Source: Botryllus schlosseri
Taxonomy: Eukaryota
Direction of reading: 5' to 3'
Assembly: GCA_051294905.1 (NCBI GenBank)
Contig: CM119372.1
Coordinates: 23,748,001-23,812,000, forward strand
Length of the DNA: 64,000 nucleotides
Shown here: positions 22,492 through 62,140 of the stretch, piece after piece
Layout: each line of letters begins with the position of its first letter
Numbering within the stretch: the first letter of the stretch is position 1
Program-made: the position numbers and the translations under genes
Notes under the pieces: model-generated
Databases searched by the model: none
What the model was told of the DNA's origin: nothing
Seen by the model: only the letters and a program-made list of their open reading frames with translations

Positions 22492-22706
22492 TCAATTATG
22501 GCTTCCAACACTTTGTTCACGTTCAGTCATTCCGATGCTAACCGATTTCGTAGAATATCCCAATGAAGGCAGCGATATTTCGACCTTCTTGAACTTTTTC
22601 CAAATAATATCCAGTAGGTCGGAGTATAACAACGGGTTCATGGCACTGTTGATCGGGACGATGAGTAATCCGGCTGGTAGGTAGGCGTCGTTTGGGACGT
22701 TGACTC
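22492..22706 (-). CDS. GPCR last exon: TM7 (NPxxY) and C-tail
   Basis: ttttag acceptor; (G)VNVPNDAYLPAGLLIVPINSAMNPLLYSDLLDIIWKK...VGSHN*. Confidence 0.92.
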
Positions 22707-25700
22707 CTAAAATCATATATAAACCTTTAGCGCACAAGACGAAAATTCCACAAATCCCAATGTTAGAAACGCTCGTGTGTTTATTAATATTTTGATCCGA
22801 TCAGAACGATAATACGATGTAGTTTATGCCAGGGATGTATAGCTCTATATATCCCTGGTATATCCGTACGCATTAGGCATTATTCGAATTCATTCAATGA
22901 AATACCCGCGTTGATCGACTGATGCAATGATCGCCAGTATTAAGATACCATGCACGAACACTGAACAGTAATTCTGATGATACGGCAGTGGTTCTAAAAC
23001 TCTTTCGACCGCGATTCAAACCTGATTTTCATTATTATCTCACCACCCAAGCTTCATGCTACCTAATAATGTATTTTCAGTGTGGGTATGTCACATTTTA
23101 CGGGCATGCATGATATATAGACTGCAAAGACAATAAGTTGTACGCAATGCAGTTTTATGGAAAATGTGTGACGCACGCCATTTTAAAATGGGATGCACAT
23201 TATTCCTTGCGGGCCGCATTTGTACGGTAAGGCCTAGATTACAAGGACGGGGATGCCAACCATTTCGACGATCGATGGTTTTGACCAACCAGTGACGATC
23301 GTTTTGGCTTAGGGCCTAAGGTTGTATCGTCGCCGATTTTACGGCAAAGCACTTTGCCCAGTCGCATGTTGGTCAAAATTCCATGTCCTCCAAGTGTAGC
23401 GGAAGGTGCGTCAAATAGTGGGCCAAAAATCACATTTTTAGTCATAACAATATTACGAATCCAGAAATACCAATGAACTTTAGCAAAACAATGGATGAAC
23501 ATGAAACACATATTTGCAAAGAAAAATGATTTGAAAATACGAAGAAATAACGAAAGCGCAGCCAATTAAAAAAACGTACCTTTTTATCCCATTGTGCCCC
23601 ATAGGCGGGGTACAATGGGACAAGCGTTGGGGGAAAACGGGACAGCATTAAAAAAATTACCGCCGCATCAGTTAGCAAGAAACTGAGAACTGTTGAAGAA
23701 ACTGATGGATCGGCAAGTGTCCTGGATCAGTTTTAGTTTACTTCCTGAAGTTTGGAATCTTATTGAAACTGGCATGAAGATCGCTGTCGGCTCGTCGATC
23801 CACATTTATTATAAGGGGTGGTATATAATTGTAATGTCCTCCGTTTATTGCCTGAGACTTCAAGAGATGTTTTGAGGGAGTGTTGGTCACGATCTAGCTT
23901 CTTCGCACTCTTCTGTTTATTTTTATAAATTTTGTAAAATTCGACTTTAAATATCAATGCACCATTGTGCCGAACAAAATTGTCCCAATGTGCGCCGCCC
24001 GCTTCTGCAGTGTAAAAACCCACCAAAATCTTTAAAGCCGCAATCATGCGCCTAAAATAGCATACAGGGAGACTAATAACTCCTCTGACTTAGCTGTGTA
24101 CTAATTTCAAGCAAAACAAATTACGGATTACGGGTGATATGACACTGCTAAATCATCGAAGCGATGTATATTCTTCCTGTCGGGTTTTAAAAATATTCAC
24201 GATGTAATATCATTGTGTCCCTGGATCCATCGTGACTCACCTTCCGTACTGGCACGGACATGGTCGGCCCCAAAATATCTATCTCTATATGGTCACGCAC
24301 ACCGCTAGACTAAAGCATCCCATCTGTCTCCGAATATACCATTCTCTCACAACTACGAATACATTTAGACTCATATCTCTAAGTTAAGCGTATTCAAAAA
24401 ACGTCTGAGTATTACCCACACTGGAGTAGCAGCTACTTGGCCGTTCTGGCTCACCGCCAGGTGCGGCAGGCTGCAAGGGGCGGCAAAAGGTGAGGTGATG
24501 ACTAGGGCAAGTTTTTGTTGCACTAAAATCGCGAGAAAGTTACATTTAATTTTAACAAAAGTTGCATTTATAATTTTTGTTGAATTATTAAGGTATACTC
24601 GAAAGGTTCCGTTGCATAACTTAGTTACTGCAGAGCTGTCTAATTTGTTACTTCGCTATTTAGCGGTCTGACAAAAATCGCCAAAAATTACATTTTTCCC
24701 GGCACACAGCAAGGAAATTACGCAATGCGCGAATGATTTTCCCCCAAAAGCCAAACAGCATAGCGATAACTCGCTCCCCCTAAAACAAGACGAATAACAC
24801 ACACCAAAGCCCCTAGGTCTGCAAACTTGACCCAAGGTATTACAGAAAAACTCACTCTTTGCGACTTTAACAAAATCAATAGCCCGAAAAAGGAGACCCA
24901 GTGAAAATGTAATTTTCAGCGGTCTCGCCTGAGCGTTCGTGAAATGGGAAACTATTTCAAATTTAAACGACAGAATTATTACAGTAATCTATTTACATAT
25001 TGTTCGGACACGGTCGTACTTGGCAGGGGTAGTTGAACTTCTTGCTTGCAAGCCATTGTGTCATAGATAACTGTGAGATGCAGGTAACCCATCATATAGC
25101 TCTTTGTTATGCAAATCAAAGAGAATAGAACCATACTAGAAATAGTTTATTGCATGTTTTTAAATCACTCCTTTACATTTTTACACAATATTTGATAAAA
25201 GTTGCAGTGAAAATTGGCAGGAAAAATAGAGAAAAGTTTCAAAAAGTTGCATTACAAACTCCCTTCAAACAACTTAAAACATCATAAGACATAGATTCGC
25301 AGTATCTAGGAAGCTGTCGGAAGCTGTAAAAAAAGTTGCCGAAGCTGCAAAAACTTGCCCTGATAACCTTATTTTAGTCAACACAACCCAAGATTTCCAG
25401 TAAATATAATTCAAAAGATTGAAACTATTTCAAAATTTGGGCGGGATTTTCAACGAAAGCCAGGGGCGGCATCATATGCTAACCAATCTTTTCAATTCTA
25501 ATTACTGTAAATCTTGTTGTGTTGACTAAAAAAAGTCATCACCTCGCATTTTGCCACCCCCTTGCAGCCTGCCGCACCTGGCGCAGAGCCATAACCGCCA
25601 ATTGGCTGCTACGCCACTGGTCGTAATCACTATTTTTGCGTGTCTCGAATACTGGCTATAGATAGTACTCAACACGGTTACTTTGGATATTTAGAAATTC

Positions 25701-28700
25701 TCCACAGGAAATTGCGCAAAGCGCTCGTCAACCAAATTTATACCCTTCGCGACCCAAACTTTCAGAATCCCTGCGATACGGTATGTATATATATATATAT
25801 ACTCGAGGCAACGACTATTTCTGCAGCAACCAACAGCACGGTAGTTGATTACTAGGGCGACTTTTTTACCTAAAAAAGAGAAGATTTTGACCTAAAAAAA
25901 CATTTTTTTACAATAAATAACTTAATTTTGAATTTTTAAATTTGGACATCATGTATGTAAATTAGGTATTTTCCCACATAAATTTTAGAATTGTACTACT
26001 TATGTTCATTTCTGGTTGGAACTGTCTGTCCTCACGAAGTGGTTTGGCCTGAGAAATCTTATTTGACTTGAAAACTGACAAATCTTTACATGAAAAATCT
26101 CGATTTTAACGTAATCTGGACCTATGAGTATCCCAGTGGTGTCATCACGCATTATGGTAGAAGTAATTAAAATTTGTTGTCGTACAACGAAGGATACTTT
26201 CCCACATTCTCGGTTAGAAAGTGTCTGTCAGTACTAAGTAGCTTGCCAAGAATGGGTAAAGAACGTTCAACTTCAGCAGTACAGATTTGGACGTCGTGAA
26301 TGAACCTGTAGTGATGCCACTCCGGTCGTGTACAAGTGAGTCAGAGTCCGCGTTGAATGCGTTCATTTCAGGTGTTACTGTATCGTCAGTTTTATAGTGA
26401 AAAGTATCAGTCTGGATAATTTGGATCGTGAGGGCGTTTGACATCGACGGTGAAATTTTGCCACCGGGCATATGTGCCGGATTATTAGCTTGATTCCGAA
26501 TTAATTTCCCGTTATCCACACCGTTTGAGAATGACAATCACCGTGGACAAAGACATATTCGTATTGTGCGAAAGCCTTAACATATAGCCCAGTCGGTCCC
26601 TTGACCATCTCCGAAATTCTGATATGAAACCTTTTCCATCACACGAATGAATATAAATCCTTGCTCGCGTTCACTAAAATCTTGCGCATAGCCCACGAGT
26701 CACATACGTGTCATGGTGGAAATCAGTTTTATATCCGTGTGCAGCAGTAAGATACTTTCCTCAATATGCTGACCCGAAGTGCAGGGCGCCTAGCGGGGAA
26801 GTCGCGGTTTTACATCAAAGTCTTCGGTCTGAGCCGACCTACCTGCTCGCGACTAGTCGCTAGGGCTGGGCAAAATCGAGTACCTGAGTGATTCGATTCT
26901 GAATCACGTAATATGCTTCGAGTCGAGTCGAGTAACCGAATATCACTCATTATGACGTCATAACATAATTTATGACGTCAAAGTTCAAATATGTACCGTA
27001 TAAGCCACCACAAAGAATAAAATGTCTGTCATCCATCGCATAAAAGATATTGGGGCATTTTTCGACCGTACCGATTGCATTCCACTTGGTGACAATGTTG
27101 TGGGATAATCATGACTTCAGAAATGTGCTACGTCCAGTAACCTTGGTAGCTTTGTACTATATGTTTCGTATGCTACGATACCGCCAATAAAAGTTTCAAG
27201 GCTTTAACAGTGAAAATTAATATGGAAACTATAATTCTCGTTGATAATTTACCTTTCAGTGGTGTGGAGCGTATAATTTCAGTACTCGAAAAAAATCGTA
27301 TTTTACTACTCGACTCAAATCATTAATATTAATACTCGATTCAGATTCGAGTACTAGAATCATTGTGCCCAGCCCTACTCGCGACCTACCGAACGCCTCA
27401 TCATTACGTTAACCCATCGGTTCGTTCATCGTGCGTTCGTGACGATGTGCGAATAGAATATAAATAAGTTCAACGAGACACAAAATTATTCGCGATTTTG
27501 TGTGAGAAACAATGTTTACCGCAAAGCTTCAATAATCCCATTATGCATATCGGCATCCAACATAAGAAGTCCGACGCGAGTATCCAGGTCAGTTTCCGTT
27601 GCATCATCGCGTTTTGTTTGCTGATTTTATCTTCTCCGGAAAATGATCTATTCAGTCTAGTTTTTTTCTCTGTCGCGAGTCTAAAAGGATCGCTCTCGTA
27701 AGGATAAAACACCGGGGTTTTCAATTGGGAAGTCGTTTGGGAAATTGTTTCAGTTCACGAATTAAAGTAGGCTATAATAGACAAACATTGCCAGACATTA
27801 ATATACTATTTTCATACATGTCAGTTATATGAATCTGTTCAATTTCTCATAAGATTGATATTACAGTCAACACAATACTGTAGGCCTCTGATTCAAAAAA
27901 TAGAGACATCGTATAGCATTTGTATAGTTCGCGTTGCGAACAGGCATAGTTATGAATAGGTTAACACGATGATGATGATGAGACTGCAATTGCAGCCGAA
28001 ACAGTATGTAAGAAAATCTGGAAGTAATTCCAAGTCTCAGAGGCATAGGGCCAATTTACCTCGAAATGCCCTCAGTAATTGGTTAAATCGATTCCATCAT
28101 CGCTATTCAAACTATTACAGACTTGCCTATACTCAACTACTGAATGCCTTGCTATAGTTTAATGATATGTAACAAATGGGAGATATTAGTCAATTTGGTT
28201 ATACATATGATCCAAAGGCCGAATGGGGTACATGTATACACTCACCTATACAGCAGTACGTAGACCACGAGCATGAAGGCAAAGGCGATGAAGTTGATGA
28301 CCAAAATCACAGTAGAATATATCCAAGCTTTGTCCTTGTTACGATCGGGAAAAAAGGTCGGAAGGCAGACGGTGTGACTCGAATAGTATCCGAATTCATA
28401 AAGTACAGTGATGTTCGGATTGAGTTCCGCAATAAGACTTTTCAAATGTTCCCAGTCCGTGTTCCTGCATAGTACTTTAGGGATGTTTTTCCATTGTATT
28501 ATCGTAGCATATTTGATACATACCCGTAATATTTGCCACGAGTTGAATCATTGTGCATGAGATTGAGCCAATTTATTGTATATGAGATTTCATCATTATT
28601 TATCATCTTGAAGAAATCATTTTCACTGAAGCTGAATATAAGAACAACGCCATGTCATGCATCAAAATGCATGCAGGGAAATTCAATATGCGAGGATTTT

Positions 28701-31700
28701 GCAAAGGATAAGGATTTGCACATAAGTTTGGACTAAATGTCTTAGAGTAATTCGCTACCAACAAGATGGCATAATGTTGAAGCGTGCTGCTGACTAATCA
28801 GTAGGTATTGTGTTAGATTCCTGTTCGGGTCGGACCAAAAACCTAATAATTAAATTTGCTATCTGCGGCTACCCCACTTGGTGATTAGCATCTCCAGGAT
28901 ACCATGGAGGGGTGAGACTAAGAAAGCAAATTGTTTGTCCAGCGGCATATGTAGCCTACATCATGCGCTCATATATAGTATGCATAAGCACAGGACGTGT
29001 GTATGTATATCACGAGTCAGTGTGTATGTGCCGTAAATCAAGGGAAAAAAAATAAAACGCAAGTGTCCTGCAATATTTCGTATGCTGAGATTCATGCTCG
29101 GTATCGTATAGCTGGCCCTTACGCGACACTGCTCTTGAAAATATCTTCGTAGCGCGGTATCACAGGAAAGACTGCGATCAATATTGAAATCGCCCACGTC
29201 GCCAGAATTGCTATGATCGTGCGGCCAATTTTGGCAGTAGCGAAGGGCCTGTCAAAAACGGCAACAATAAGGGCTACGATTTATGTACAATAGTCGGATC
29301 CATTTGCATGAAGGCAGCGGATCACCGATTATAATATAACCTATAGTGAAAGGTCTTTCATGAAGTGCACTTTCTATATTAGAATTAAAATATTTCAACC
29401 TAGCACAATCGCAATATATAGTACGATGCTGGTATTACTTAATGCCCACCTTGCTATTGAGTGCAATCTATAAAATGCGATCAAAACCATAGTGAAAACA
29501 GATTGCTCCGATCCAATAAGCAATATAACTCCTAGCAAAGAGCACGCAGTGCTACTGCGCCATTGTCGATCGACCTTGCAGTACCGCCCATCCACCTCAG
29601 ACGTCTTTATACATATTGCTAACGCGTAAATCTAGAAGTCAAAGGTCAGCCAGTCGTTGAAAATTTATGATTTCGCCAACTTCACTTACGCCAACAAGGA
29701 AATCGGACACTGCTAGGCTCATTATCAAGATATTGAAGAGTTTGGTATGGCCAGACGCTCTTTTCCTCGTCCCCAATCCTTCACGTTTTCTTACGGAATG
29801 ACAAGTGAGTATTACCACAGTGGTACACCCAATGATTGCAGCGATACCTACAGAATCGAAATTGGATAAGGAAAATATAAAAACCCGTCCGCAGATATTT
29901 CAAAAATACAGGAAATCTCGGATAGGTTCCCTATACGCATAAATACGAAATTCTCAAAACTCACTGATTATCCAAACTACAACGAGAATGGTCCTGCTTG
30001 TAATCAATTTTTCTTCGTTGGAGAAAGCGCTGTCAATGCAGCCGAACTGACATTCGTCAGAACCAGATTGGCAATCCTGGATGCCATCGCACACCTATTT
30101 ACCAAAAAAAAAAACATTGTTTTATTTTTATCTTCAAGCCAAGTCGAATGGTGCGGTTATTGATTTGTGCGGAATACCGTTAGTTGAAGTGGTGCATATT
30201 TTGCCTAATTGTCTCGTGAAGTTGCTAAATCAGTAATCTATACAGCCCAGTAATCTACGCCTGGGGTTGACAACTCGCGGCTCTTTTGTGCATCTGTTGC
30301 GGCTCTTCGTAAAAAGCAAAATAAATGTATATTGCATGACTCATTAGGCTCAAACTTTGTACGACATTGCATTTTCATATACATTGTGATTGTGATATAT
30401 GATGAGTAGGGTGATATTTTTTGACATGTCAAAAAAAGTCTAAATTAGGTCAAAATTGTAGCGTTAGGTCAAAAAATGTCAAAATTCTTTACAAAGTCGA
30501 AACTTTATGCAACCCGCATTTCGTTTGTATGGTAGATTTTGCACTGTCGGTGAACTTATCATTTGTCACTTTACAGCTTGTAGCCTACTTTATAGGCCTA
30601 CCGTTGTAGATGGCCCATTGGGTGCTCATTGTGAATGATAAACATTCAACTGAAACCAATAGGTTGGCATGGCGTTATGCTCAACGTACCGCAATTTCCG
30701 AACTGAAGCAAGACTGCGTGGGCATTGAATGGTTCTTATATCAAGAAGGGCATCACGGAAAATTGTGATGTAGACACCATCGCCAGAATGAAGCAACACG
30801 GTTTGTCACCAGCAGTGTACGCACAACTTCAGTGTTGTCAGCTAACAACTGCTGCTGTTGAACGTTCTTTCTCCATTTTTGCCAAGCTACTTAGTAAGGA
30901 CCGACACTTTCTACCCGAGAATGTAGGAAAGTATCTTTCGTTGTACTACAACAAATTTCAATTATTTCTATCATAATGAGTAATGTAACTACTGTAATTC
31001 TTCACAGGGCCAGATTTCGTTAAAATAAAGTTTTTTCATGTAAAAACATTGTCAGTTTTTGAGGCAAATAAGTTTTTTTTCGGGGCAAACTACTTCGTAA
31101 GGACAGAGAGTTCCAACCAGAAATGAAGATAAGTAGTACAATTCTAACATTAGGTGGGAAACACCTAATTTGCATACGTTAGATCAACATTTGGTGAAAA
31201 TTAAGATTTTTAAGGTAAAAAATGTCAAAATTAACATATTTTAGGTCAAAATCTTCCGTTTTTTAATAAAAAATTCGCCCTAATGATGAGAGATTAGTAA
31301 CTTTTTGACTGATTTGCCGTCGAGCCGCATATAATCACTAATCACACGCTGTGTTCTCAAGCCCTATAGTCCTCAACAAAATCGCTAACACAAGCATGTA
31401 GTCTATACTCGTAATCTCATATTGTGTGAATGCGGTTTCGCTGCTACCACGCTGCACAGATCACATAAATTTGTTAGCGAGAGTCTGTAATGACAATGCA
31501 CGGCAGACTAGCCGGTCTCTCTCAATAACTACTGCTCGAATTTCGTTGTGAATGTCAAAATCGCGCCTGTGACTCTCTGATGGTACGCAAATATGAGCCA
31601 AAAACTGCTTCATGAGCGCTTTCATATCTTTATATTTGGTAATCCTTTTGCATTCGAATGACGAATCGGTTGCATGGTGTAGTTGTGACCAGAATATTTT

Positions 31701-34700
31701 TCATTCAAGAAGAAAAATATGGCAAGTTATGTTCACCATCGAACCCTTACGTGATTTCTAAAATTGCTTTTTTTTAGGCCGTTACTGCCACAGTATGCCT
31801 CATCCCCCTTCGCACATTATGTTGACGTTCTTGTAGCATAAAAATAATTTTCGAGATAAGTTTATTGAATTTGAAAATTCTACCTAGCGCAGTGAAGCAT
31901 AATTTTTGGCATCACCTGAAAAGGAATCGCGTTAGCACTCGCTTGCAACCGCCGAAGAGATTTCAACAAATGTGCGAATCAGCAGCACGCAATCGTGTGA
32001 TTGTTTGTTTTTATTGAACAATTTTGGCGCTTATCGCCGATAAGGTCATTTGCGCCCGATCATGAATATTGTTTTTTGCTTGATCTTTTTTGTTCGTGGT
32101 ACGATTTTACGATTTTCGCGGACGACTTCGAGTCACACTCGCATCCACGTCTTTCGCTCTTTCTCTCGCACGCGTCATCGTCAGAGTCTGTTGCAGCTGA
32201 TTTCCGTAAGCTCGACTATACTTATTCAACTGGGCTTTTCGTACGACATATGCAGTGAGGTCAGCGATTAGCAGCCCAGATAAATCTCCGACACATAGAA
32301 GTAGGTCCGAACCGGGATTCGAACTACTAACGCAGTCGTGTGATAATATTAGGTTTAGAGTTGCATATACTGTATGCGTCCTGTTGAGTTAGCGTCGACA
32401 ATATCAGCCACACTGTAAGCCAGTGGTTCCCAACGTGGGCGATTTGGCGGTCTAGGGTGGCGAAAATAACGAAGGGGGCGATAGGGGGGCGAAAACGGAC
32501 GAAGGGGCCCATTAGGGGCGAAAACAACGAAGGGGTAATAAGGGGGCGATGGCGCGTTGAAACGGCTATATTGGAGTCGGGACCGTAACTAGCGCACCCC
32601 AAACCCCCCAATTGGGGGTGGGGGCCCGAAATCGAAGGAAGCCCAAAATTATTTCGTGAATTAACATGAATGATTGAGTAATTTTTTAGAAATTCATGCG
32701 ACTTTTTCAAACATTTTTCGCGCTGGGCGCGATTTAATATTTTCATGTATCTTGATGTTGGGGTCCCCGTCACCCAACAAAAATACGCATAATTTATGGA
32801 AATGATAGACTTCGACGTCGGCCATTACTGCGCCACGACGCACCAAGACATATGAAGTTAGAGGCCATGTAATATGCGACTACAAGAAGTGTGCCAGAAC
32901 GATCAGCAGCGAGAAGACCTTGGCCGAAAAGGAATGCCCTTGTGCTGACCGGAAACTTCGATATATATACATATATGTTTAATTGTCCATAGGCGCCTCA
33001 ATGGCTGGCGTCGAATGTTCCTGTCCTGGCGTCCTTAACCCCACAGGACAAATTCCACCCCGCAAGGAAAAAATTATTTGCCAGTGAAGAAATGCCAATA
33101 TGAAATCATGTGCGTCTTTTAGTTTGGTACGCTTTGACGATTTCCATATCTTCTGACATGTAGCAGATATAGGAGGTCACGAAATAGCATCATGTAAAAA
33201 AGTCAATATAACAACGATTCCACCCGAAGATGTTTAATTATTATTTAGGGGTTCTACCTTTTCCAACATATCACATCGACCATATTGACCGATTCAAACA
33301 TGAATTACATAAATTTGTCGCGCTTCGCGTGTTTAGGCGAAATACGGTGACTCACCATACAGTACATGAAATAGGGTATAGCTAACATATAGCGACAAAA
33401 AGCCCACTGGCTGATGGGGATCTGGAGTTTAGTTTATCAACCTATGGGGCCAAAGACCAACGTTTTTTCGGGGGGGTGGCTGACGAAGTGCTGTTTCTCG
33501 GTTCCCAATATTTGGGGGCGATGATCGGTGTGGAGCTTCAAAAGGGGGCGATGAGTCGAAAAAGGTTGGGAATCACTGCTGTAAGCTGTGATCTATGATT
33601 GTGGAAGTTTGTAGGTTGTGTCGTCATAATACCAGATTTGCCACTCACTCGAAAAGCCAGATGTTGGATCGCTACGAGATGTTGAGAATGAAATCAATGT
33701 TTGACTATAGTCTGTGGAAACTGTGGTGATTGTCAGTTGCGGATGAAACAGAGCTCTCGGTTGTTTTATGTGGTCTGAAATAGGTTTAAATTGTTTTTTG
33801 AATGCTGAAGGTTGCCGACCCTTGAGTCTTTCAATTAACGCGTGCAATAATGAAGAAGCGAGCGCAGTATGTCGAAAAGGGCGGGGAATAATTTTAATGC
33901 AACTGTATCGGAACATACATTTAAAATAAAATATTCTATACACAGATGATAATCTGGTGATTAAATTGTCAATTCTCAGTCAAATCAATGAAAGACGTGT
34001 GCTTTATTTTCTTCAACGAGGAGGTTTCATCGGGGGTTTCTGGTATGGAAGGTATGAACATTGGACACGTACAAGTTTCTAGCTAGTGTGAACATGAGGT
34101 TTTATAGAAGGTACGCTGTGAACACGTAAGCGGTGACGGATTCCAGTATTTCAAGCAAAGTTCTCGACAGCGGCACTGCGCTCTATATATGATGTTGTAT
34201 CAAATTTAAATTGAAAGCGTGAAGAACATTTGACTGATGTCCTTTTCTCCAGAAAGCCTCCGTATTTGAACTGTGGCTAAAATATTTTCACGAAAGGTAC
34301 AATTGCAGTCTAGATATTACTGTGGTATCGATGTTACGCGCCATCGACTCTTAACCTTTGCGATGTTACTAACTGCATGCATGCTACATAGTTATTGCAG
34401 GCCTGCGGTACCGTCGCTCAACAGACGAAGTGTTATGAAGCGATGATGCACGACCATAATGTTCAAGCCCCAAATATCCATCTTACCGCATTTTCGTGAA
34501 TGTATTCCAAGATGCCGTCATCGCCACAGTTGAATAGAGAGCAATTGCGTTCATCGGCTCCATCTGGGCAATTCTAAATTTCACATCGATAAATTCGGCA
34601 AATGTTATTCCAGATCTTCCCGCGTAATACGTACCCCACGTCGATCGCAACGATTTTCCATTGGAACATTCGGCAATGGATGATTTGTGCAATAGAAACT

Positions 34701-49700: not shown

Positions 49701-52700
49701 TGAATTATTGACCTCTTTTTCCATGGTGAATTTCAGTGATGGGTGAAGACCATTCAATTTGCTCAGAAACAAATCACACTGGGATTCATTTTCAAATATG
49801 GCGAAGGTGTCATCAACATATCTTTGATACATTAATGGTCGATCAATATCTTCGAATAACCGTTTTTCGTAATACCCCACAAAAATGTTAGCCAGAATGG
49901 GACCAAGCGGCGATATGTTGATGACACCTTCGCCATATTTGAAAATGAATCCCAGTGTGATTTGTTTCTGAGCAAATTGAATGGTCTTCACCCATCACTG
50001 AAATTCACCATGGAAAAAGAGGTCAATAATTCATTAGCATTCCTTGATGTTGTAGTGGAAAAGACGGGTGCTAATTTTGTTACATCAGTTTACCGTAAGC
50101 CTACATTCAGTGGGCAATACATTTCGTGGGATTCTTTCTGTCCAGTAAAACGTAAAGTAAATTTGATAAGAACTCTGGTACACAGGGCTCTGATGATTTG
50201 TAGTAAAGTCAAACTTGATTCTGAATTGGAGAACATTCGGTCAATCTTTCAGTCAAATGGTTATCCTGATCATATCATTAAAATGACCATAGATCGTAAA
50301 CTCAAAGATTTCAGAAAAGTTAAACCGTTTGGACCTAGAAAATGTCCTGTTTATTTGCATCTTCCTTGGATTGGGAAAGTGTCCAACAGGTTTGAAAAAC
50401 AAATTAAATCGTCAGTGAGCCATTGTTTTTCACAAGTAGAACCTCAGATAATCTTCATGACGAAATCTCTGATGCCTGCAACGCAAAAGGATGTGCTACC
50501 TGCGACAAATCAAAGCAACATAATATATGAATACACGTGCCGATGTGACAGTCGGTATGTAGGTCGCACGTCTCAGCGCTTGCAGCAAAGAATTCGCCAG
50601 CATGTCCCACGGCAAATTAGAATAAATATTGTTTCTCCAACTCCTTCATCGCAGTCTGTTGACACACTGCGTGATTATGATCAAGTTACTGCTTGTAATT
50701 CGGCTATTGGACAGCATCTCTTATCCCATCCAGAATGTGCTGATCATTACAATGACAGTCAATTTTCTATACTTGCTCGTGGCCGTTCTCTGTTTCATTT
50801 AAAGGTCCTGGAATCTACGATCATAAAGCTACGAAAGCCGATTCTCTGTCGCCAGAAGGAACGCCTCTACACTCTTGGAATATTTCATTAATGTTATGTG
50901 TTGTGTTTTCGGTTATTTATAACCGAATATGTACTCGTTAACGTTTGTTTTGTACCGTTACTACCGTATCTAGCCCGTCTACTAGTTGTTTGTTTTTGTT
51001 ATTATTACGTCATACAGACAAAATAGTTCTTACATTTCGAATTTGATTCACCCCATCACTAACGTTCGCTACTGATGAGAGTTAGTCGAAAAGCTTTTAG
51101 CGAATAAATTAACAATATGAAGTTATTGTTTCGCGTTATTCTGAAGTTCTGTACCACAAATCACTTGTATATTTAAGAGTTCAAAATCAACGGAAACTTC
51201 ACACGCTTGAGTATTTTGAGTACTATATTCCAAATTTGAAATCAAAAGTTTTATATTCTCGTAAGACCCTTGATGCCAGTTGTACCAGCTACAGCGATAG
51301 AAGCACATCGATTCGTATTGTGCGACGAAACAGCTTTTAGGCTTGATCAATAAATAAAGAGCGCAATTCACTGTAGACTAATACAATAGAGGCAAAGAAT
51401 CGTGTGTATTTACTATCAGGTGCCAGGGCCAAGTATAAGTTTGACTTTTAATCTGGAACCTACAATAAGAGAAGATTAATTTGGCAAATTCACGTTTTTG
51501 ACAAAGTTATTTAGTTCAGCTTGATTCAACTTTATATAGCTGCTGCTGATTATCATCATCACCACACTCATGCTGGGAACATTCTTCAGACAAAGACTCT
51601 TCACCGAGAGAATCTTCTTCAACTGTTGGTAAAACGTTTGAAGGCAATGGAATTGTGACATCTGTCCCATGAGGAATCGGTCGTATTGCGCAAGTCAAAT
51701 TGGATATTGAATTTTATGCTGATTTTTGACATTGAATAAAAAAACAATAGCAAAAGAAACAATTTTTCCGTGTCCATGTGGCTCTCTCCAAACCATTGAC
51801 ACACCAAATGCTAAATATTTTTGTTTTCGAATGCTTCACAGCCTGATTTCAAATATTACTCCAAGTCGTTTCAACGCCTTCTAATTTTTTTCATTGTATC
51901 GCAGCCTTGTGATGTTTTGAAAGGAAGAAAATATTAATAAATTGATACTAATATCAAAAACTAGGCCTAGAATACTTACTTTTTTACATACTTATAAAAA
52001 GTTACTTTTACTTCTACTTGAGTATAAATTGACGCCGTTACTTCTACTTCTACTTGAGTACCTATGGTAAGCACTTTGACCACCTCTGATGACGTCACAA
52101 TGGTTATAGCTATAACCCAACAGCAAGGAATACGTCACGGAACAGGCTGTTTTGAGCACTAAAATGCAAAATTTTAAATCACAGATTATAAAAATATTGA
52201 CGTGGTAGAAAAAAACGACTTCATACTCGTAATCATCCTTTTGGTCAAAAAAATAAAAAATGATGTCGATCAGTGTAATCATTGAGCTAAATTCATATAT
52301 TTCGGCTCTCATTCGGGGATTCCAAAATATTCTGATTACCAATTAAAACCCTGTTGTTGCGGGAAAGGAGCACATATATCGCTGTATATCATCTACTACC
52401 TAATCGCTGGATTTATCTATCCACAGATTCACCGTAAATTCATCTTTCATTTCTCGACTTTTTAGCCTCGACCCTAGGATTTTCATTTGCCCTTCATAGA
52501 CCCCTCGGAAGGTAGTCCGTTGCCACGGTTCACGGACCTCAATTTAGGGATTTCGGTTTATACACTCAATTTTTCGTTTCATACAAACTCCTTTCTATTC
52601 TTGTTGACATTTTTATCAAAAACTTCCCTACCTGTATTTTCAAAAATCATGTTCCCGAAATGCCAAAAATATTCATGCCTGCATATGCCCATGACTTTTG

Positions 52701-53126
52701 AAGAAATGTACCCACATGTTGTCACATATCATCGCTGCATCGAATGTTATATACTCCTCGTCATCGGACAAGCAATGCGGTCCATCTTTGGTACCATTCC
52801 ATTTTTGATCTAAAGATGGCGGCAGCATTGAAAACAACCCTCATGGGACATTGATTTTGTTCTTACTCAGAGTTAATTTTTGACAAATATCATGTCGATT
52901 TTTCAAGGAACAGAGACATTCATCGGTGAGATCAGGGCAGTTGAACGATCCATCACACAGGTTTGACACAGTGATGACTGTCTCCGGATTTGACAAACAT
53001 TGAAAGCAGTTTTCGTCCATAAAACCTGGATATGACGGCGATTACAATTTACAAATTGCATATAGATCTGTAACGTCTGACCAAAATGTTCTGCTAATCG
53101 CATCAATGCTTCGAAGGGCGCCAGAC
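22492..53126 (-). CDS. Spliced LDLa-repeat class A GPCR (GRL101/RXFP/LGR-like, no LRR ectodomain); gene-level span of confidently linked exons
   Basis: GT-AG exons with compatible phases: 53082-53126, 52867-53025, 41785-41841, 41574-41697, 39836-39943, 34635-34698, 34487-34573, 29965-30094, 29690-29847, 29450-29631, 29123-29248, 28524-28631, 28246-28464, 27520-27680, 22492-22706 (TGA). LDLa cores CDG..C.D.xDE and 7TM motifs LAVSDFLVG, FYRL, GYYSSHTVCLP, DFLCWMP, PINSAMNPLLY. Confidence 0.9.
24420..25619. mobile_element. Inverted-repeat DNA element
   Basis: CGCCAGGTGCGGCAGGCTGCAAGGGG near 24454 and its reverse complement near 25558; ends approximate. Confidence 0.6.
26861..27377. mobile_element. 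hAT-type MITE (TAGGGCTGGGCA TIR)
   Basis: TIRs and TCGAG subterminal motifs; another end of this family at 60310-60387. Confidence 0.75.
27520..27680 (-). CDS. GPCR exon: ICL3 and TM6
   Basis: ttttag / GTAAAC; LATEKKTRLNRSFSGEDKISKQNAMMQRKLTWILASDFLCWMPICIMGLLKLC. Confidence 0.9.
28246..28464 (-). CDS. GPCR exon: ECL2 end and TM5
   Basis: tgcag / GTGAGT; NTDWEHLKSLIAELNPNITVLYEFGYYSSHTVCLPTFF...YSTVILVINFIAFAFMLVVYVLLYR. Confidence 0.92.
28524..28631 (-). CDS. GPCR exon: long ECL2
   Basis: ttcag / GTATGT; phase 2-2, open frame FSENDFFKMINNDEISYTINWLNLMHNDSTRGKYYG; 59-nt intron to next exon. Confidence 0.8.
29123..29248 (-). CDS. GPCR exon: ICL2 and TM4
   Basis: gacag / GTAAGG; PFATAKIGRTIIAILATWAISILIAVFPVIPRYEDIFKSSV. 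Confidence 0.9.
29450..29631 (-). CDS. GPCR exon: TM2 end, ECL1, TM3
   Basis: tctag / GTGGGC; IYALAICIKTSEVDGRYCKVDRQWRSSTACSLLGVILLIGSEQSVFTMVLIAFYRLHSIAR (LGR-type W-x-S-x-x-C). Confidence 0.92.
29690..29847 (-). CDS. GPCR exon: TM1, ICL1, TM2
   Basis: tgtag / GTAAGT; IAAIIGCTTVVILTCH...FNILIMSLAVSDFLVG. Confidence 0.92.
29965..30094 (-). CDS. Exon joining last LDLa module directly to TM1
   Basis: aatag / GTGAGT; VCDGIQDCQSGSDECQFGCIDSAFSNEEKLITSRTILVVVWII. Confidence 0.92.
30407..31282 (+). mobile_element. Internally deleted hAT element retaining the transposase C-terminus
   Basis: TIR TAGGG(T/C)GA, TSD ATGATGAG; ORF 30725-30976 TTAAVERSFS..KLLSKDR (hAT dimerisation-like). Confidence 0.8.
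31999..32326 (-). mobile_element. tRNA-derived SINE, 5'-truncated at the B box
   Basis: Colinear with 7661-8000; GTTCGAATCC; (CAAA)n tail. Confidence 0.75.
32421..33578. mobile_element. Non-autonomous hAT element
   Basis: TIR CAGTG(G/A)TTCCCAAC, TSD CTGTAAGC, GGGGGCGA subterminal repeats. Confidence 0.85.
34487..34698 (-). CDS. Two LDLa exons (34635-34698, 34487-34573) split by a 61-nt intron
   Basis: FYCTNHPLPNVPMENRCDRRG + NCPDGADERNCSLFNCGDDGILEYIHENA; GTACGT...tttag intron. Confidence 0.88.
35035..39317. mobile_element. Long-TIR DNA transposon with 3-bp TSD (possibly Academ-like), with nested MITEs
   Basis: About 170-bp imperfect TIRs starting (T/C)AGTCCTGTAGAATTT, TSD TAA; relic ADTTIV...SDDTGVLCLL at about 36230-36330. 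Confidence 0.6.
35595..36008. mobile_element. hAT-type MITE, same family as 533-981 (opposite orientation)
   Basis: TIRs and 8-bp TSD CTTTGGAC. Confidence 0.85.
39836..39943 (-). CDS. LDLa exon
   Basis: catag / GTAAGT; CVPVNGTAISLVWLNSMCDGAQFCENLGDERGCK. Confidence 0.88.
40190..41169 (+). mobile_element. tRNA-derived SINE split by a MITE
   Basis: A box at 40200-40210, B box GGTTCGATTCC at 40847-40857, (TTG)n tail at 41148-41168. Confidence 0.7.
40228..40824. mobile_element. hAT-type MITE with GACTCGAGTC arrays
   Basis: TIR CAG(G/T)GTTGT, TSD GTGCCTAC. Confidence 0.85.
41574..41841 (-). CDS. Two exons (41785-41841, 41574-41697) forming a divergent LDLa module
   Basis: SSSAEVAKVENFTCFNGT-K-ATACDGIAECLNFLSEECECEQKAEFCDYFTTYRDQEGFAG; canonical splice sites, phases match. 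Confidence 0.82.
42916..43352. mobile_element. hAT-type MITE (TAGG(C/G)TTACCATA TIR)
   Basis: TSD ATTTAACC; relatives at 18716 and about 54700-55255. Confidence 0.85.
43390..43469 (-). CDS. Candidate ectodomain exon
   Basis: aatag / GTTTGA; PPIPLLIRILYLLFDEQSGYCPICDF; ends phase 1 matching the 41841 exon, but its upstream phase-2 partner is unresolved. Confidence 0.3.
44144..45122. mobile_element. hAT-type element with (GACTT/GACTC)n arrays
   Basis: TIR CAGTGTTGGGAT, TSD CTGTTAAT/CTATTAAT; related ends near 9070 and 21533. Confidence 0.85.
45490..45543 (-). CDS. Candidate Cys-rich symmetric (phase 1-1) exon
   Basis: ctcag / GTTTGG; CKNETIPCRQWTICMSK; neighbouring candidate exons in 45200-45700 not resolved. 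Confidence 0.4.
45897..46239 (+). mobile_element. tRNA-derived SINE
   Basis: A box TGGCGCAGTG, B box GGTTCGAGTC, body homologous to the copy at 17135-17492. Confidence 0.8.
46240..47042 (+). mobile_element. 3' fragment of R4/Dong-type non-LTR retrotransposon (restriction-like endonuclease)
   Basis: EYTWRH...WYDYSP...LWDVPVITDREIRSNRPDIIV...FIELTV...KHSKYADL...VPIVIGA...HILRKAL* with one internal stop; AATAAA and (GAA)n tail at 47023-47042. Confidence 0.85.
48630..48669 (-). ncRNA. Minimal type I hammerhead ribozyme, mirror copy
   Basis: Exact reverse complement of 51065-51104. Confidence 0.8.
48843..49913 (-). CDS. PLE reverse transcriptase C-terminal part + GIY-YIG endonuclease (5'-truncated)
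   Basis: SPLGPILANIFV, YQRYVDD, FLDV, YRKPT; GIY-YIG-type NIIYEYTCRCDSRYVGRTSQRLQQRIRQH with CCHH residues (SAIGQHLLSH). Confidence 0.93.
   Translation of the reverse strand, partial: SPLGPILANIFVGYYEKRLFEDIDRPLMYQRYVDDTFAIFENESQCDLFLSKLNGLHPSLKFTMEKEVNNSLAFLDVVVEKTGANFVTSVYRKPTFSGQYISWDSFCPVKRKVNLIRTLVHRALMICSKVKLDSELENIRSIFQSNGYPDHIIKMTIDRKLKDFRKVKPFGPRKCPVYLHLPWIGKVSNRFEKQIKSSVSHCFSQVEPQIIFMTKSLMPATQKDVLPATNQSNIIYEYTCRCDSRYVGRTSQRLQQRIRQHVPRQIRINIVSPTPSSQSVDTLRDYDQVTACNSAIGQHLLSHPECADHYNDSQFSILARGRSLFHLKVLESTIIKLRKPILCRQKERLYTLGIFH
49912..50891 (+). CDS. PLE RT C-terminus + GIY-YIG endonuclease, second (shorter) truncated copy
   Basis: Begins at YVDD; the ORF-track translation is identical to the minus copy over 309 aa. 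Confidence 0.92.
51065..51104 (+). ncRNA. Minimal type I hammerhead ribozyme in PLE 3' UTR/pLTR
   Basis: TTCGCTA-CTGATGA-GAgttagTC-GAAA-AGCT-TT-TAGCGAA: 7-bp stem I, conserved CUGAUGA/GAAA core, palindromic stem/loop III, overlapping AATAAA. Confidence 0.8.
52867..53126 (-). CDS. Microexon 53082-53126 plus LDLa exon 52867-53025
   Basis: LAPFEALMRLAEHF-G-FMDENCFQCLSNPETVITVSNLCDGSFNCPDLTDECLCSLKNRHDICQKLTL; 56-nt intron; GTAAGA donor. Confidence 0.85.
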
Positions 53127-53219
53127 CTATATAGTTATTGCAAACATCCTTGCCGAAGAATAGTGACAAAATATTAATCTAATATTCGAAATCTTTGATC
53201 AAATGCTGATGAACTGTAG

Positions 53220-55243: not shown

Positions 55244-55599
55244 ATGGTAACCCTAAATTATGGATAAGACGTATGCATCATTACAAATCATATGTATGAG
55301 TTGAGTGTATGTTTTTACTTCCACGGAACCCCCGATACAGGCTCATGGCACCCCTAGTGTTCCGTGGAAGACCGGTTAAGAATCAGTGACCAGTGACCAC
55401 CAGCGAAGACCTAGGCGATATATCGAATGGTTCGTTATGCTTTCTCAATAACAATTGACATCCATGTACGTCTACAATGTACGATGTACGTGTGACAATA
55501 GAAAATTACAGGCTCGGGTGCGCAGCTACAATACAAAAATGAAACACCGCCAAAGAAATTAAAAATTGACTGTCAAGTTGTAGTACGTTGTACGCTTAC

Positions 55600-56162
55600 C
55601 AAAAGCAGAAAAGTGTGGACGGCAAAACCGCTGTACCGTGATCCTCTGTTTTGACTAGATCGTTTAGTAGGCCTCGTAAGACCAGGGGTAGGCTAAGCAA
55701 CACTAGGTATGTAGCTGTAGCGTAGCATTTTTTTCAGAATAACTATAGTACCAAGCAAGCTTAAGCTGCAACGGTATCATTTATGTCACAATACTTTATA
55801 GCCCTTATCTTTCGTATTACCTTTTGTAAAACTACAGAAAATGGATGAACTCAATAGAAGTTGAACACATTGTTTTAGATTAGAAGTAACCATGGACCGC
55901 ATTCGTGTTTTGTGTGGCATACGGCATGCAAAACACAGCTGACGGGCTCGCGTCGCTGGCGAGTAAGCTGGAAATATTCGGGTTTATCTCAATATGAATA
56001 TATAATTCAATTGTAGGGGGCAAGATGTGTTACAATACCATACTAGTTCGGCACGAACTACGATGCATATTTTCGTACCGTGTACGAATTCAGCGATTTG
56101 GCAATAATGATAGGCCTAATTGTTACCTGATCTGTCTCCATCGCAAGGTCCTTCTTCGGCCA
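55600..56162 (-). CDS. Three small linker exons (56127-56162, 55891-55967, 55600-55645) between VWA and LDLa
   Basis: AEEGPCDGDRS / YSPATRARQLCFACRMPHKTRMRSM / RITVQRFCRPHFSAF; AG-GT bounded, phases 1-1, 1-0, 0-1 chain into the 53126 exon. Confidence 0.55.
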
Positions 56163-59100
56163 CTGAAATAGAATATTTTTAATATCGACTTTCTTAGATC
56201 ATTCCGCCAGCCAGACATAGTTTTTACACGTCATAATGCAGGTCAAGTACCGAAACCACGAACACCTCACACAATTTCAGATTTCGCAAAGTTTTGAGCT
56301 GTAGGCCTATCAAGGAAATACCATGAGAAGTGAAGAAATGTAATATAAGAAATACTGAATAGTGTGAGTCTATTAAGCCTGCAACAGTTGTATCGCTATT
56401 CTATTTTTTCACGCTACACACCATACATCTTCAACATGAAGGCATGAGCTATATATAGGTAACTGGATCACTTCTTTTATAAGTTGACAATGTCTGAATA
56501 AATTATGACTAAACATGTGTGCTCAGAACCATTGTGAGAAGACGATTGTTGAAGATGAAACTTATTTCGTATTCAAGAAAGCTTGCCAAATACAAACTCC
56601 AGCATTCGCGCTCGACGGAGTATATAGGCTGATTTCACCTTCATTTGAGAAAATTTTTGATATTCTTTGAAGATTTAGAGCAATTCCCACGTGTAAGTCA
56701 TTCATTACTTCATAGCTTTGGCAGTAGCCTAAAGCTCGGTGAGCTGAGTAGCTGTTGTTAATAGCTGGCGAACTGCACTGCCTAAGATAGACTTAGATGC
56801 AATAGAGGTTGTCCGGTTTTGCCCTCAATTAGGCTACCCTAAATCAAAACAATTTAACTCAATTCCAAAGCCGATCAAATTTAGCATGGCGGTACAGAAC
56901 GCCGCCGTGATCTCTGTAGTCACTGCCAACATTAGGATCAGTCTCAGATGCAACCTACCTTGAAATAAATTGATGTCCTGTTCAATGTTTCTGTTATTTT
57001 CAAACAAGTTTGGGGAAAATTTGTCACAAATGTAAAAGACTCAACAATGGAATGCGGATTCAAACTTGTAAGATATACCATGGACTATCAGATGATATGC
57101 TCTTTTTGACATGACGATAAGTGCAGGGGTCCGGGGGGGGGGGCGCAATATTTTTACCATAGCCAAGGGGGGCACATGTCCAAAAAGTTGAGAACCGCTG
57201 CTTCAGAACAAAAACACTGGACAACAATTTTGAACAAAAAATTTTTTGACTTTGATTTTGCACTGTATTTAGGCTAATTTTCGCGTGCTGATTCCAAATA
57301 TGCCGCTGGCTTTCTTCTGTCCGTAAGGTTTTTGCTTTACGACATACGCCCAAAATATGCAAATTTTCACGAAATTAGCCATAATACTTTTCCGTACCAT
57401 ATTAAAATCCACATTTTACCATATAATAAGTTGAATAGCCAAGGGCTCAAATGAATTATCAAGAAAAAGGGTACTCGTATCGACCTAGGGCTAGGCCGAT
57501 ACTTTCCCCCATATTTGGTTAGAGCTGGGGCGGGCAACATACGGGCCGCGGGTTGGTTCCGGCCTGCGACGGGATTTTGTGCGGCCCGCCGACAGTTTGC
57601 GGTCTTACGTGATGATGTGGCCCTCGTCGCCGTCTACAGGCATTTGGGCGCAAACATTTTCGACCATCAACATTAGCAAGACAAAGCGACGTTCCAATGC
57701 AACTGATGTCCACCGCATTTGCGTAGCCAGGGGCGAATGGGGCCATGCCATACCCACTTTTTCGAGAATATTAGTAATATATATAAATAGTAGAATATTT
57801 CAGGGCAGATGGATTCAAACTGGAAAAATTCGCGCGCTTAGCGCGATTTAGTGTCTCTACATACGTGTCTTGATTGTGAAAATACTGTACCAGAATCGTC
57901 CGAGGCCGTGGGGTGGCAGGAGTCTTGAATGAAGTAATTAATAAGAATGAACCCGTCCCAAGTGAATAATCTGCGAGAATATTGTTATAGCACAGGCCTT
58001 GGCAAAGTGCCGCCCGCGGGCCAAATGCGGCCCGCGAAAGGTTGCTTGAAATTGAAAATATAAAACCTACTTTTTAATGTTGCTGCGTGGAATAAAACCA
58101 TAGGATGTATAAACTGAACCGGACTTCGTTTATTATCAAGCCTGTTTGTTAACATGCCGCGATTACGTCGCCTATACGTACCTCACATGCATAATCCAGA
58201 TTCAAAGCAAAGTCAATGTAGGAAATTATGCCGTTACAATTAAAGTCTCAAGAAGTCACCAAACCTTCTTTGATGCCAATGTCACAATATGCATTACAAG
58301 TTCTCCGTTTCAAATTTTTACGTGATGCGTTTCCATATCCCTCATTCGTAAAACAAGTCAATCAGTGCCCGTGATTTCTATGAGTATATTACCACCCATA
58401 AAGGATGTAAAAAAAAACTAAAGTTGAAATTCAAAGACGGTTCGGAGGGCTAAAAATTTGTTTACCGCCCGTCTTTTTGGTAGTTAGTGCCTAGCACGTC
58501 GCGGTGTTAAAGGACTATAATTTAGGTCGGATCTATGACAAAAACACGAAGACATAGACTCGATTAAGGGACGGCGAATTTCGGAATAACTGCAAGCTTG
58601 GCTCAACAACAAGGCCATTTCGGCAAGCTGCACACTTCTCGGAAACCAGCTACAAAGGCAATAATATTCAGAGTATCCGCAGGACCGTAACTGCCGCACC
58701 CAAAGCCCCCAATTGGGAGGCGAGCTCGAAGGACGCCGAAAATTATTTCGTGAATGAACATTCGGCGTCAGCAATTACCGCGCCACGACGCGCCAAGATA
58801 TATGAAGTTCAGGCCAACACGGGATTCCGAGAAGGCACTGCGATTGCAACTTCTGATCACATTAACCCTTTTAATGGGGGGGGGGGGGGTTCACTGGTGA
58901 CCCAAGTTCAAGTTCATCTCTCAAATTCTCTAAAGATATTTCGTAGCGGACTGCTTTTGGTTTCTATGGAAAACCAGCAATCTTCTTATTTATTTGATAC
59001 CTAATTTGACGGTATAGGGCATGACAATTTTCGAATACCGACGATCTGACATGAGGAGTTCGGCCGAAAATACGCATGCCTAGAATTTTCAGATATTTTC

Positions 59101-60498: not shown

Positions 60499-60658
60499 CA
60501 CATAAATTCTTTTCCAGTTTGAGGAGCGCATGCGCAATTTTTGTATAGTTCACTATTGATATCACATGCTCGCTCGTTGGCTCTGATGCCAGCCTGATCG
60601 AGAAATCTTCTGATATTAGGTTTCCCACAGCTATCACAAATATTTCAATACCAGACTC
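60499..60658 (-). CDS. VWA domain C-terminal exon
   Basis: ttcag / GTAAGA; ESGIEIFVIAVGNLISEDFSIRLASEPTSEHVISIVNYTKIAHALLKLEKNLC. Confidence 0.88.
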
Positions 60659-60806
60659 CTGAAATTGTATGATGAGTTGGAAACAACTGCGTGTCTCCGA
60701 TTTTATCCATTTTAATAATATAACACATGTCACGTCGACTACCAGACATTTGAGCATGTGACACTTGAGCATGTGATTTTATTATAACCCAAACTATAAC
60801 CTTACC

Positions 60807-61197
60807 TAGAGTTGCATTTAAAACAAAAATCAATCTAAAACAAACATGTTTAAAACAAGCTTGTTTAAGACACGTTTTATTGTGTGTTTTTTGAGTCATG
60901 ACGTCACAAATATTCAATTGTGACGCCATAGTGGATTGACATTGGCAATTGAAAATATAGGGTAAATATAGCTCTTTTGACGAAATATCCACGTACTTTA
61001 GCTGTTGAACCGACTAATTTGAGGGTTCCGACCATCCCATATCGCATACGTCGGCTATATCGGGAGCTAATCGTACGTGGGCACATACAACGTGTTTTTG
61101 GAAAGGATTTTTTTAAAGGGTCTTTGTTTCAAACACTGTTTAAAACATGTTTTAAACAAAGTGTTTTAAACAACCATTTGTTTTAAATCCAACCCTA
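60807..61197. mobile_element. hAT-type MITE, same family as 533-981
   Basis: TIRs; imperfect TSD ACCTTACC/ACCTACCC. Confidence 0.8.
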
Positions 61198-61985
61198 ACC
61201 TACCCCAGTAGCTCCCAGAATTTATCATCCCGTGGGCCCCTTCGGGCGATATTCGAACCGGAATTACCCTCGCTCAATATTAAAATCCTGTCTGATGGCT
61301 AATCGATGGCTGATCGCATCTTTACCTGTGGACTGAAAAAGGGCAGACATGTCCAAACGTTCTTGAAAGCGGCCAAATCGCACATTTGGCAGGGTACTGC
61401 TCAATTTTTGCATCTTGGTGTATAGTGACCATCACTATACTCTTGTCAGCGGTGAGGTACAGTAGTAAATCGACGAATTTTGCATGTATTCTAACGCTCG
61501 GGCTGATTCTGACTATAAGGAGCAATTCAGTCGTGAGGCGGCCTCGGGCCACACAGAACCGTCTTCCGCACTGCAATCTATAAGTTAATATATAGCGCAC
61601 GTGACTCCAAATAGCCGAATTCCTCCACAGATTCCCCACGACTGGGATCCCCATACAGTTTATCTGTCATCTATGATTGTTGTGTAGACTGTAGACCAAA
61701 TTATATATTATCGATAATCCTTGAAATCCAAGTGTCAATCTTAAAGCCAAAGTTACCCTTATAAATTACTAATGTGGGTGGGTGGGTGTATACCCCGGTT
61801 GGTGACCACTTCGGCGTAGCCCTAACGCCGAACCAACCCAAGACCAACCGTAACTAATATTCTCCAGTGTAGCATGCTACTGTGTCACATGGTCATATAT
61901 GTTCAATTGTCCACGAATCATCATGACATTACACGAAACTGTAGCCTGTTACATTTAAAATGTTGGCGCAATCCCGAAAACCAAC

Positions 61986-62140
61986 CTCGGCCCTTCTTCG
62001 TTCTATCGCGATGTCGTCCTGCGAGTCACCATCAGTAACGATAACTGCAACCTTTGTCACGTCTGCGTCCATTCGAGCGCCTTTTTTTGCGGTGATTGCC
62101 ACAGTATAAAGGAAGTTAAGCGCAGCGCCAGTACGCGTTC
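61986..62140 (-). CDS. VWA domain middle exon
   Basis: ttgcag / GTTGGT; GTRTGAALNFLY...GARMDADVTKVAVIVTDGDSQDD (VWA T and TDG MIDAS residues); phase 0 join to 60658. Confidence 0.9.

Follow-up and report, generated by a model that had tools for sequence, protein, structure and literature searches.

The 64,000 nucleotides of Botryllus schlosseri DNA analysed here (assembly GCA_051294905.1, contig CM119372.1, C2:23748001-23812000; hereafter the window) raise the question of whether exons for a VWA domain, LDLa-like modules and a seven-transmembrane (7TM) domain encode one G protein-coupled receptor (GPCR). We conclude that they very probably form a single gene, termed W, with a VWA-to-linker splice that we infer. 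One gene is favoured because three paralogues share the same layout, their VWA and 7TM exons have diverged equally, and spliced contigs are found on either side of the junction. The full reading, a 904-residue orphan class A GPCR whose VWA tip would grip a ligand through a metal ion and so switch on the 7TM domain, is given a probability of about 0.7. Coordinates are window positions, and those above 64000 or below 1 extend the window numbering into the flanks.

Gene structure of W

W lies on the minus strand and comprises 22 exons separated by 21 introns, all GT-AG, which together give a single open frame of 904 codons (Table 1). The predicted protein consists of a signal peptide, a VWA domain, a 12-codon linker, six LDLa-like modules, a short hinge and the 7TM domain. 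All 904 residues of the model were assigned to these parts, and no leucine-rich repeats (LRRs) were found among them. The protein was assessed exon by exon and as a conceptual model. A hydropathy scan placed the signal peptide and six of the seven transmembrane helices (TM1 to TM7) over the threshold, with TM7 recognised by its NPxxY motif. Six CDxxxxC...DE-C signatures were counted in the ectodomain, and exon 15 holds the last LDLa-like module, the hinge and the start of TM1 together, thereby tying the LDLa modules to the 7TM domain.

The original prediction placed two VWA exons on the strand of the GPCR, at 61986-62140 and 60499-60658, and both were confirmed by AG/GT borders and Pfam VWA matches. 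Each was said to end in phase 1 without a stop, which holds for 60499-60658, whereas 61986-62140 ends in phase 0. These exons encode the second half of the domain only; exons 1-3 fall outside the window. From there the predicted path ran through four small exons, of which only 56127-56162 is conserved and spliced. For 55891-55967 and 55600-55645 neither paralogue has a matching exon, and a contig of sequencing run X2 skips both; the same contig skips 53082-53126, whose acceptor is lost in paralogue A. The three rejected exons sum to 168 nt and thus kept the frame by chance. The proposed link from 52867 to 41841 also fails, as exons 52716-52809 and 42603-42649 intervene, and with these added the LDLa-like modules number six rather than five. 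Altogether the proposed exon path was wrong in five places. The complete 7TM domain was borne out, with the frame open through TM7 to the stop.

Paralogues with the same layout

Comparison with the flanking sequence revealed two paralogues, A and B, each with all 22 exons in the same order and the same phases as W. Paralogue A is arranged in tandem to W on the minus strand (6392 to -68758) and continues past the left edge of the window. Paralogue B is inverted on the plus strand (132831-173809), 45 kb from the first exon of W, and is open for 907 residues. In W, A and B alike, the last VWA exon has no stop and ends in phase 1, the phase in which the linker begins. By simple counting, with no significance test and with comparisons to B near saturation, synonymous divergence (dS) between W and A is 0.477 in the VWA exons, 0.557 in the LDLa exons and 0.470 in the 7TM exons. 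Equal dS in the VWA and 7TM exons indicates that they duplicate as one unit. The corresponding ratios of nonsynonymous to synonymous divergence (dN/dS) are 0.39, 0.17 and 0.18. The VWA domain is the most divergent region in every pair, with identities of 71, 51 and 54% among the three copies compared with 59-83% in other regions, which fits differing ligands and also a weaker constraint.

The introns between the VWA exons and the linker (4.3, 9.9 and 8.9 kb) were scanned for a substitute signal exon. The scan recovered all three true signal exons, but no conserved candidate common to W, A and B was seen in these introns; unshared candidates numbered one in W, four in A and one in B.

Non-coding blocks at 58026-58664 and from 63435-64000 onward are 70-75% conserved with A in matching introns, and one conserved block is duplicated in W (64484-64689 and 75743-76150). 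They are possibly regulatory elements or old repeats. As coding sequence, the block at 58026-58664 and both copies of the duplicated block were rejected, since they contain stops and indels despite their conservation with A.

Transcript evidence on either side of the junction

Splicing was seen in separate contigs that face the key junction from its two sides. On the receptor side, a 383-nt contig of run X2 joins the linker 56127-56162 directly to 53025 in the first LDLa exon. Contigs of runs X1 and X2 further contain a 57-nt joint between exons 7 and 8 and a loose end from 52716 into 42649, and a DNA-like run (X4) carries the exon 7-8 stretch unspliced, in one piece. On the VWA side, a 267-nt contig of X1 matches 60499-60660 with no differences and departs from the genome exactly at the donor of VWA exon 4. 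Several intronic contigs are also present in X1. Run X3, likewise guessed to be RNA, covers no exon of W. The raw RNA runs X7 and X11, sampled at 6% and 13%, showed zero depth at 52124-52787 and, among the joints listed, none of the gene, their alignment being swamped by repeats.

Two side observations concern the same runs. An X1 contig ends at 53127 with a fold-back of 11 letters, which completes a palindrome of 30 nt and is a likely assembly or template-switch artefact. At 45900-46030 a tRNA-like short repeat attracts RNA reads of X7 and X11 by the thousand, with loose ends, and is probably a short interspersed element expressed from other copies.

Membership of the LDLa receptor family

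The 7TM domain of W retains the class A motifs LAxxD, R3.50, CWxP and NPxxY and both disulfide cysteines. Its exon 17 matches LHCGR best, and the profile of the exon for extracellular loop 2 (ECL2) and TM5 matches LGR4. An intronless paralogue passes both Pfam cut-offs, has RXFP1 as its best PDB match (E 1.9e-25) and aligns with the W model at E 1e-97. The ECL2-TM5 profile retrieved 188 proteins among 1.84 billion, 150 of which were listed. Among the 51 listed relatives of at least 656 residues, 47 combine Ldl_recept_a with 7tm_1, three match 7tm_1 only and one is unrelated; none of the 51 carries a VWA domain or LRRs. The W model aligns to the LDLa plus 7tm_1 relatives at E 1e-134 to 1e-73, starting from about residue 227, just past the linker, and these relatives carry extra LDLa modules at the place of the VWA domain in W. 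A local VWA profile found no match in the 150 listed relatives (best E 3.1; control E 4e-39). Word-index protein searches with the ECL2-TM5, VWA1 and VWA4 exons gave no match, which is weak evidence, and a protein atlas returned generic VWA clusters only. Judged by its predicted protein, W is a member of the ascidian LDLRR-GPCR family with a new ectodomain variant. The original assignment to ascidian LDLa-GPCRs lacking LRRs is upheld.

Searches of the 495-Mb genome gave at least 84 matches to the TM3 exon (exon 17) and at least 76 to the first LDLa exon, and a VWA match lies nearby in only 3 of the 84. The VWA exon with the DxSxS motif has 13 matches, of which three (W, A and B) are within 50 kb of a TM3 match and the other ten are at least 1.7 Mb away. 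In four other family members inspected, the 20 kb before the first LDLa exon contain no VWA match, and in three of them candidate Cys-rich exons lie there instead.

Apart from the VWA domain, the family shows several features of its own. At least 84 TM3-exon matches compare with 14 family members described in Ciona. Large tandem clusters of the family occur on C1 (25.0-31.8 Mb), C16 (20.2-21.1 Mb), C11 (24.9-25.3 Mb) and C14 (12.7-13.3 Mb). Beside members with 20 exons there are five with uninterrupted frames of 508-833 residues over the LDLa and 7TM regions, which are retrocopies or an intron-poor branch. ECL2 of W (28246-28631) spans about 100 residues, about 70 more than in RXFP1, is conserved in the family and is possibly a folded domain.

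The VWA domain and its origin

The VWA exons of W cover positions 1-42, 80-121 and 130-168 of the Pfam profile PF00092, and an exon of A covers positions 43-74. A metal ion-dependent adhesion site (MIDAS) had been predicted, and all five of its positions (DxSxS, Thr and Asp) are kept in W, A and B, down to 51% identity; the DxSxS motif itself lies outside the window, at 79404-79555. In a MIDAS site, Mg or Mn is bound and its shell is completed by an acidic side chain from the protein ligand. LDLa modules are stabilised by calcium. Conservation of the site suggests that the VWA domain probably binds a protein in a metal-dependent manner.

After W, A and B, the next match of three of the VWA exons is one gene on C10 (7498638-7513963), which is 19.5 Mb from any 7TM match. 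It contains four VWA exons with the same borders and phases 1-0-1-0-1, followed by an EGF_CA exon (E 1.4e-11), a layout that we take to be matrilin-like. Its identity to the VWA exons of W is 40-57% per exon, and on these per-exon matches the C10 gene appears to be the likely donor lineage of the receptor VWA. Since the cassette is in phase 1 at both ends, it can be inserted behind a signal exon and ahead of a phase-1 LDLa exon with no frameshift. We consider it likely that the domain was gained by exon shuffling of such a cassette from the C10 gene or a relative; the insertion would have left the frame unshifted, and two duplications would have followed.

Proposed mechanism

We propose that a divalent metal would link the VWA domain to an acidic residue on a protein of the matrix or cell surface. 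Ligand capture at the tip would then pull or reorient the LDLa stalk, and the hinge and ECL2 would be freed to switch on the 7TM domain in an RXFP1-like manner. In the RXFP1 structure preprint, ECL2 fills the orthosteric pocket and the LRRs hold the receptor in check, while activation runs via ECL2 and the hinge, whose leucines are needed (10.1101/2022.01.22.477343). Expressed sequence tags of LDLRR-GPCRs in Ciona come mostly from blood (PMC2396169), and from this a role in blood-cell recognition is guessed by analogy. RXFP1-like activation combined with such a role is tentative and has somewhat less than an even chance. A rather unlikely extension is that a recent exon shuffle, by adding an integrin-like MIDAS domain, turned a rhodopsin-class receptor into a class A "adhesion receptor" that arose independently of GAIN-type adhesion GPCRs. 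The three diverging VWA tips would then serve as specificity modules, by which blood cells might recognise matrix, opsonised microbes or non-self cells and signal directly via G proteins.

Evidence against the proposed reading and alternative explanations

Several observations weigh against this VWA receptor. No contig or read crosses the splice from 60499 to 56162 in the assembled contigs and runs examined. Runs X1 and X2 come from one study and are presumed to be RNA only by guess, though their contigs do follow exon borders. The 267-nt X1 contig continues for 105 letters past the VWA donor and is not among the three X1 records on 52600-53200, so these letters are not the linker plus the first LDLa exon; they are possibly retained intron after the linker, a 77-nt candidate exon or another terminal exon. 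Among all results, this one speaks most against a single simple transcript. Three exons of W match Ldl_recept_a at E 0.011-0.026, all under the cut-off because the modules are divergent and split across exons, and none of the six single TM exons matches Pfam 7tm_1. In paralogue A, exon 20 (C2 about 23684500-23684720) has an 11-nt deletion (208 versus 219 nt) that shifts the frame before TM5, with the rest intact; this is possibly a young pseudogene, a null allele or an assembly error. A tree of the 7TM region (108 columns; 31 rows, from 26 spliced members of the 84 matches and five long-frame members) groups W with A (94/97), but B is not placed with them and one origin is found in 21% of bootstrap trees. 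A single origin of the three VWA receptors would thus rest on the VWA similarity and the shared linker, not on the 7TM tree. The ECL2 motif of W is Cys-Leu-Pro-Thr, with Ala as the fourth residue in B and a hydrophobic residue one position later. Since this motif is conserved only in part and the loop exceeds that of RXFP1 by about 70 residues, the relay may differ from the one in RXFP1, and W is without the LRRs that gate RXFP1.

These points bear on three other explanations. If the VWA exons were a gene of their own, a secreted VWA protein would lie upstream of an ordinary LDLRR-GPCR and the two would have been duplicated as a pair. The missing view of the key junction and the lack of a VWA fusion in any of the 150 listed relatives fit this arrangement, and equal dS fits any co-duplicated block. 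It is very improbable, however, as the VWA part of W, A and B has no stop and ends in phase 1, the linker begins in phase 1 with no conserved signal exon of its own, and order and orientation have survived an inversion and spacers of 4.3, 9.9 and 8.9 kb. Alternatively, one gene could give two products, the full receptor and a secreted VWA-only decoy or opsonin, if transcripts were processed differently beyond VWA exon 4 or beyond the linker. The 105 letters absent from the first LDLa exon agree with this, as do the blocks at 58026-58664 conserved with A and a strong acceptor near 59400, after which the phase-1 frame would reach a stop in a few codons. Intron retention accounts for the X1 contig equally well, though, the sequence around 59400 is repeated in many copies (depth 400-850), and pairwise comparisons showed no terminal exon conserved among W, A and B, which leaves the second product quite unlikely.

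A different role for the domain was also considered, in which the VWA domain is structural and tethers, oligomerises or caps the receptor like the LRRs of RXFP1, while ligand binding falls to the LDLa modules or the long ECL2. In favour of this, a VWA match is missing near most family members, ECL2 is longer than that of RXFP1 by an insert of about 70 residues, the RXFP1 LRRs are described as autoinhibitory (10.1101/2022.01.22.477343), and Kamesh et al. suggested ligands of lipoprotein type for the LDLa repeats (PMC2396169). On the other side, W, A and B retain each of the five MIDAS positions even where identity falls to 51%, and in every pair the VWA domain has diverged most, as expected of a surface that faces a ligand. 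We regard a purely structural role as doubtful and favour the metal-dependent VWA receptor. The predicted combination of VWA, LDLa and an LGR/RXFP-like 7TM domain accordingly stands on three paralogues, dS and the flanking splices, with its key junction not observed.

Features of the locus

The exons of W and those of paralogue A that lie in the window are given in Table 1. Within intron 8, the region 48600-51200 holds long open reading frames at 48843-49994 (minus) and 49860-50891 (plus), a reverse-transcriptase-like YVDD motif and inverted ends.

Table 1. Positions of the W exons and of paralogue A exons in the window, with the evidence for each.
Feature	Position	Strand	Evidence or remark
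W exon 1, signal peptide	87684-87753 (C2:23835684-23835753)	minus	Beyond window
W exon 2, VWA with DxSxS	79404-79555 (C2:23827404-23827555)	minus	Pfam VWA E 6.1e-8; beyond window
W exon 3, VWA	65603-65705 (C2:23813603-23813705)	minus	Beyond window
W exon 4, third VWA exon, MIDAS Thr and Asp	61986-62140	minus	Phase 1 to 0; AG/GT borders; Pfam VWA 61986-62138, E 2.7e-7, over cut-off
W exon 5, last VWA exon (VWA exon 4)	60499-60658	minus	Phase 0 to 1, no stop; AG/GT; Pfam VWA 60500-60658, E 0.0058, under cut-off
W exon 6, 36-nt Cys-containing linker	56127-56162	minus	Phase 1-1; kept in both paralogues; spliced to 53025 in X2
W exon 7, LDLa-like module 1	52867-53025	minus	Ldl_recept_a E 0.026, under cut-off; spliced in X1, X2
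W exon 8, start of LDLa-like module 2	52716-52809	minus	Joint 52809-52867 with CT..AC ends in X1 and X2; kept in A, B
W exon 9, end of LDLa-like module 2	42603-42649	minus	Start equals X1/X2 loose end from 52716; kept in A, B
W exon 10, start of LDLa-like module 3	41785-41841	minus	Paralogue comparison, open-frame model
W exon 11, end of LDLa-like module 3	41574-41697	minus	Paralogue comparison, open-frame model
W exon 12, LDLa-like module 4	39836-39943	minus	Pfam Ldl_recept_a E 0.024, under cut-off
W exon 13, start of LDLa-like module 5	34635-34698	minus	Paralogue comparison, open-frame model
W exon 14, end of module 5 and start of module 6	34487-34573	minus	Paralogue comparison, open-frame model
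W exon 15, end of module 6, hinge, start of TM1	29965-30094	minus	Ldl_recept_a E 0.011; hydropathy
W exon 16, TM1-TM2	29690-29847	minus	Model
W exon 17, end of TM2, extracellular loop 1, TM3	29450-29631	minus	Best PDB match LHCGR E 3.8e-4; at least 84 genome matches
W exon 18, TM4	29123-29248	minus	Model
W exon 19, long ECL2 insert	28524-28631	minus	Paralogue comparison, model
W exon 20, ECL2 with Cys-Leu-Pro, TM5	28246-28464	minus	Profile matches LGR4 E 1.7e-4; 188 database relatives
W exon 21, intracellular loop 3, TM6 (CWxP)	27520-27680	minus	Model
W exon 22, TM7 (NPxxY), C-tail, stop	22492-22706	minus	Model
Paralogue A exon 1, signal peptide	6323-6392	minus	Paralogue comparison
Paralogue A VWA exon with DxSxS	3281-3432	minus	Pfam VWA E 1e-7
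Paralogue A second VWA exon	2013-2115	minus	Pfam profile, paralogue comparison

Comparison with known systems

The combination of VWA, LDLa and 7TM domains is a new ectodomain variant of an orphan family, and is probably unpublished. No VWA domain on an LDLa or class A GPCR was found in a literature search that took in text from PMC6267866, 10.1101/2025.10.31.685756 and 10.64898/2026.06.10.731386 and had most subscription papers and the supplements outside it. In a sponge study, VWA is named only in a figure legend that covers mixed receptor classes (PMC8242945). Similar to W, the LDLRR-GPCRs of Ciona (PMC2396169) have tandem LDL-A repeats, a 7TM domain like that of INSL3/relaxin receptors, no LRRs and a lineage-specific expansion. 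W differs in that an N-terminal VWA domain takes the place of the first LDLa modules; neither VWA nor von Willebrand appears in the main text of that paper, its supplements lying outside the comparison.

RXFP1 and RXFP2 (type C1 LGR) and the snail receptor GRL101 (type C2) resemble W in 7TM homology, N-terminal LDLa, the hinge and the Cys-hydrophobic-Pro of ECL2. Their motif is Cys-hydrophobic-Pro-hydrophobic, whose first three positions are present in W, whereas the fourth is Thr (Ala in B) and the hydrophobic residue comes one later. They carry an LRR solenoid between LDLa and the 7TM domain, and W is without LRRs and hence without the relaxin-type binding site. In its place W would present six LDLa-like modules, a VWA tip and an ECL2 about 70 residues longer. 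The three VWA receptors offer a test of whether an LGR-type 7TM domain can be driven by any ectodomain.

The original prediction described the ectodomain as adhesion-type, which is apt for the domain but does not make W an adhesion GPCR. Adhesion GPCRs (class B2) likewise carry an adhesion-type module on a long ectodomain and may share contact-dependent signalling with W. However, they have GAIN/GPS and a class B domain (7tm_2), whereas W is class A and its relatives match 7tm_1 only; in W the stretch from the last LDLa cysteine to TM1 is about 15 residues long, which leaves no room for GAIN/GPS. If the VWA domain indeed senses contact, class A receptors would have reached the design of adhesion GPCRs independently. 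Matrilin-like VWA-EGF matrix proteins and integrin I-domains share with W a VWA domain with the DxSxS...T...D MIDAS, which in W would sit on a 7TM receptor. A phase 1-1 domain cassette on an orphan GPCR would be a clean and datable case, in a genome that still contains the family from which the cassette probably came. Because the binding chemistry of VWA and MIDAS is well understood, these three receptors may be the most tractable route to a ligand of the LDLRR-GPCR family, orphan since 2008.

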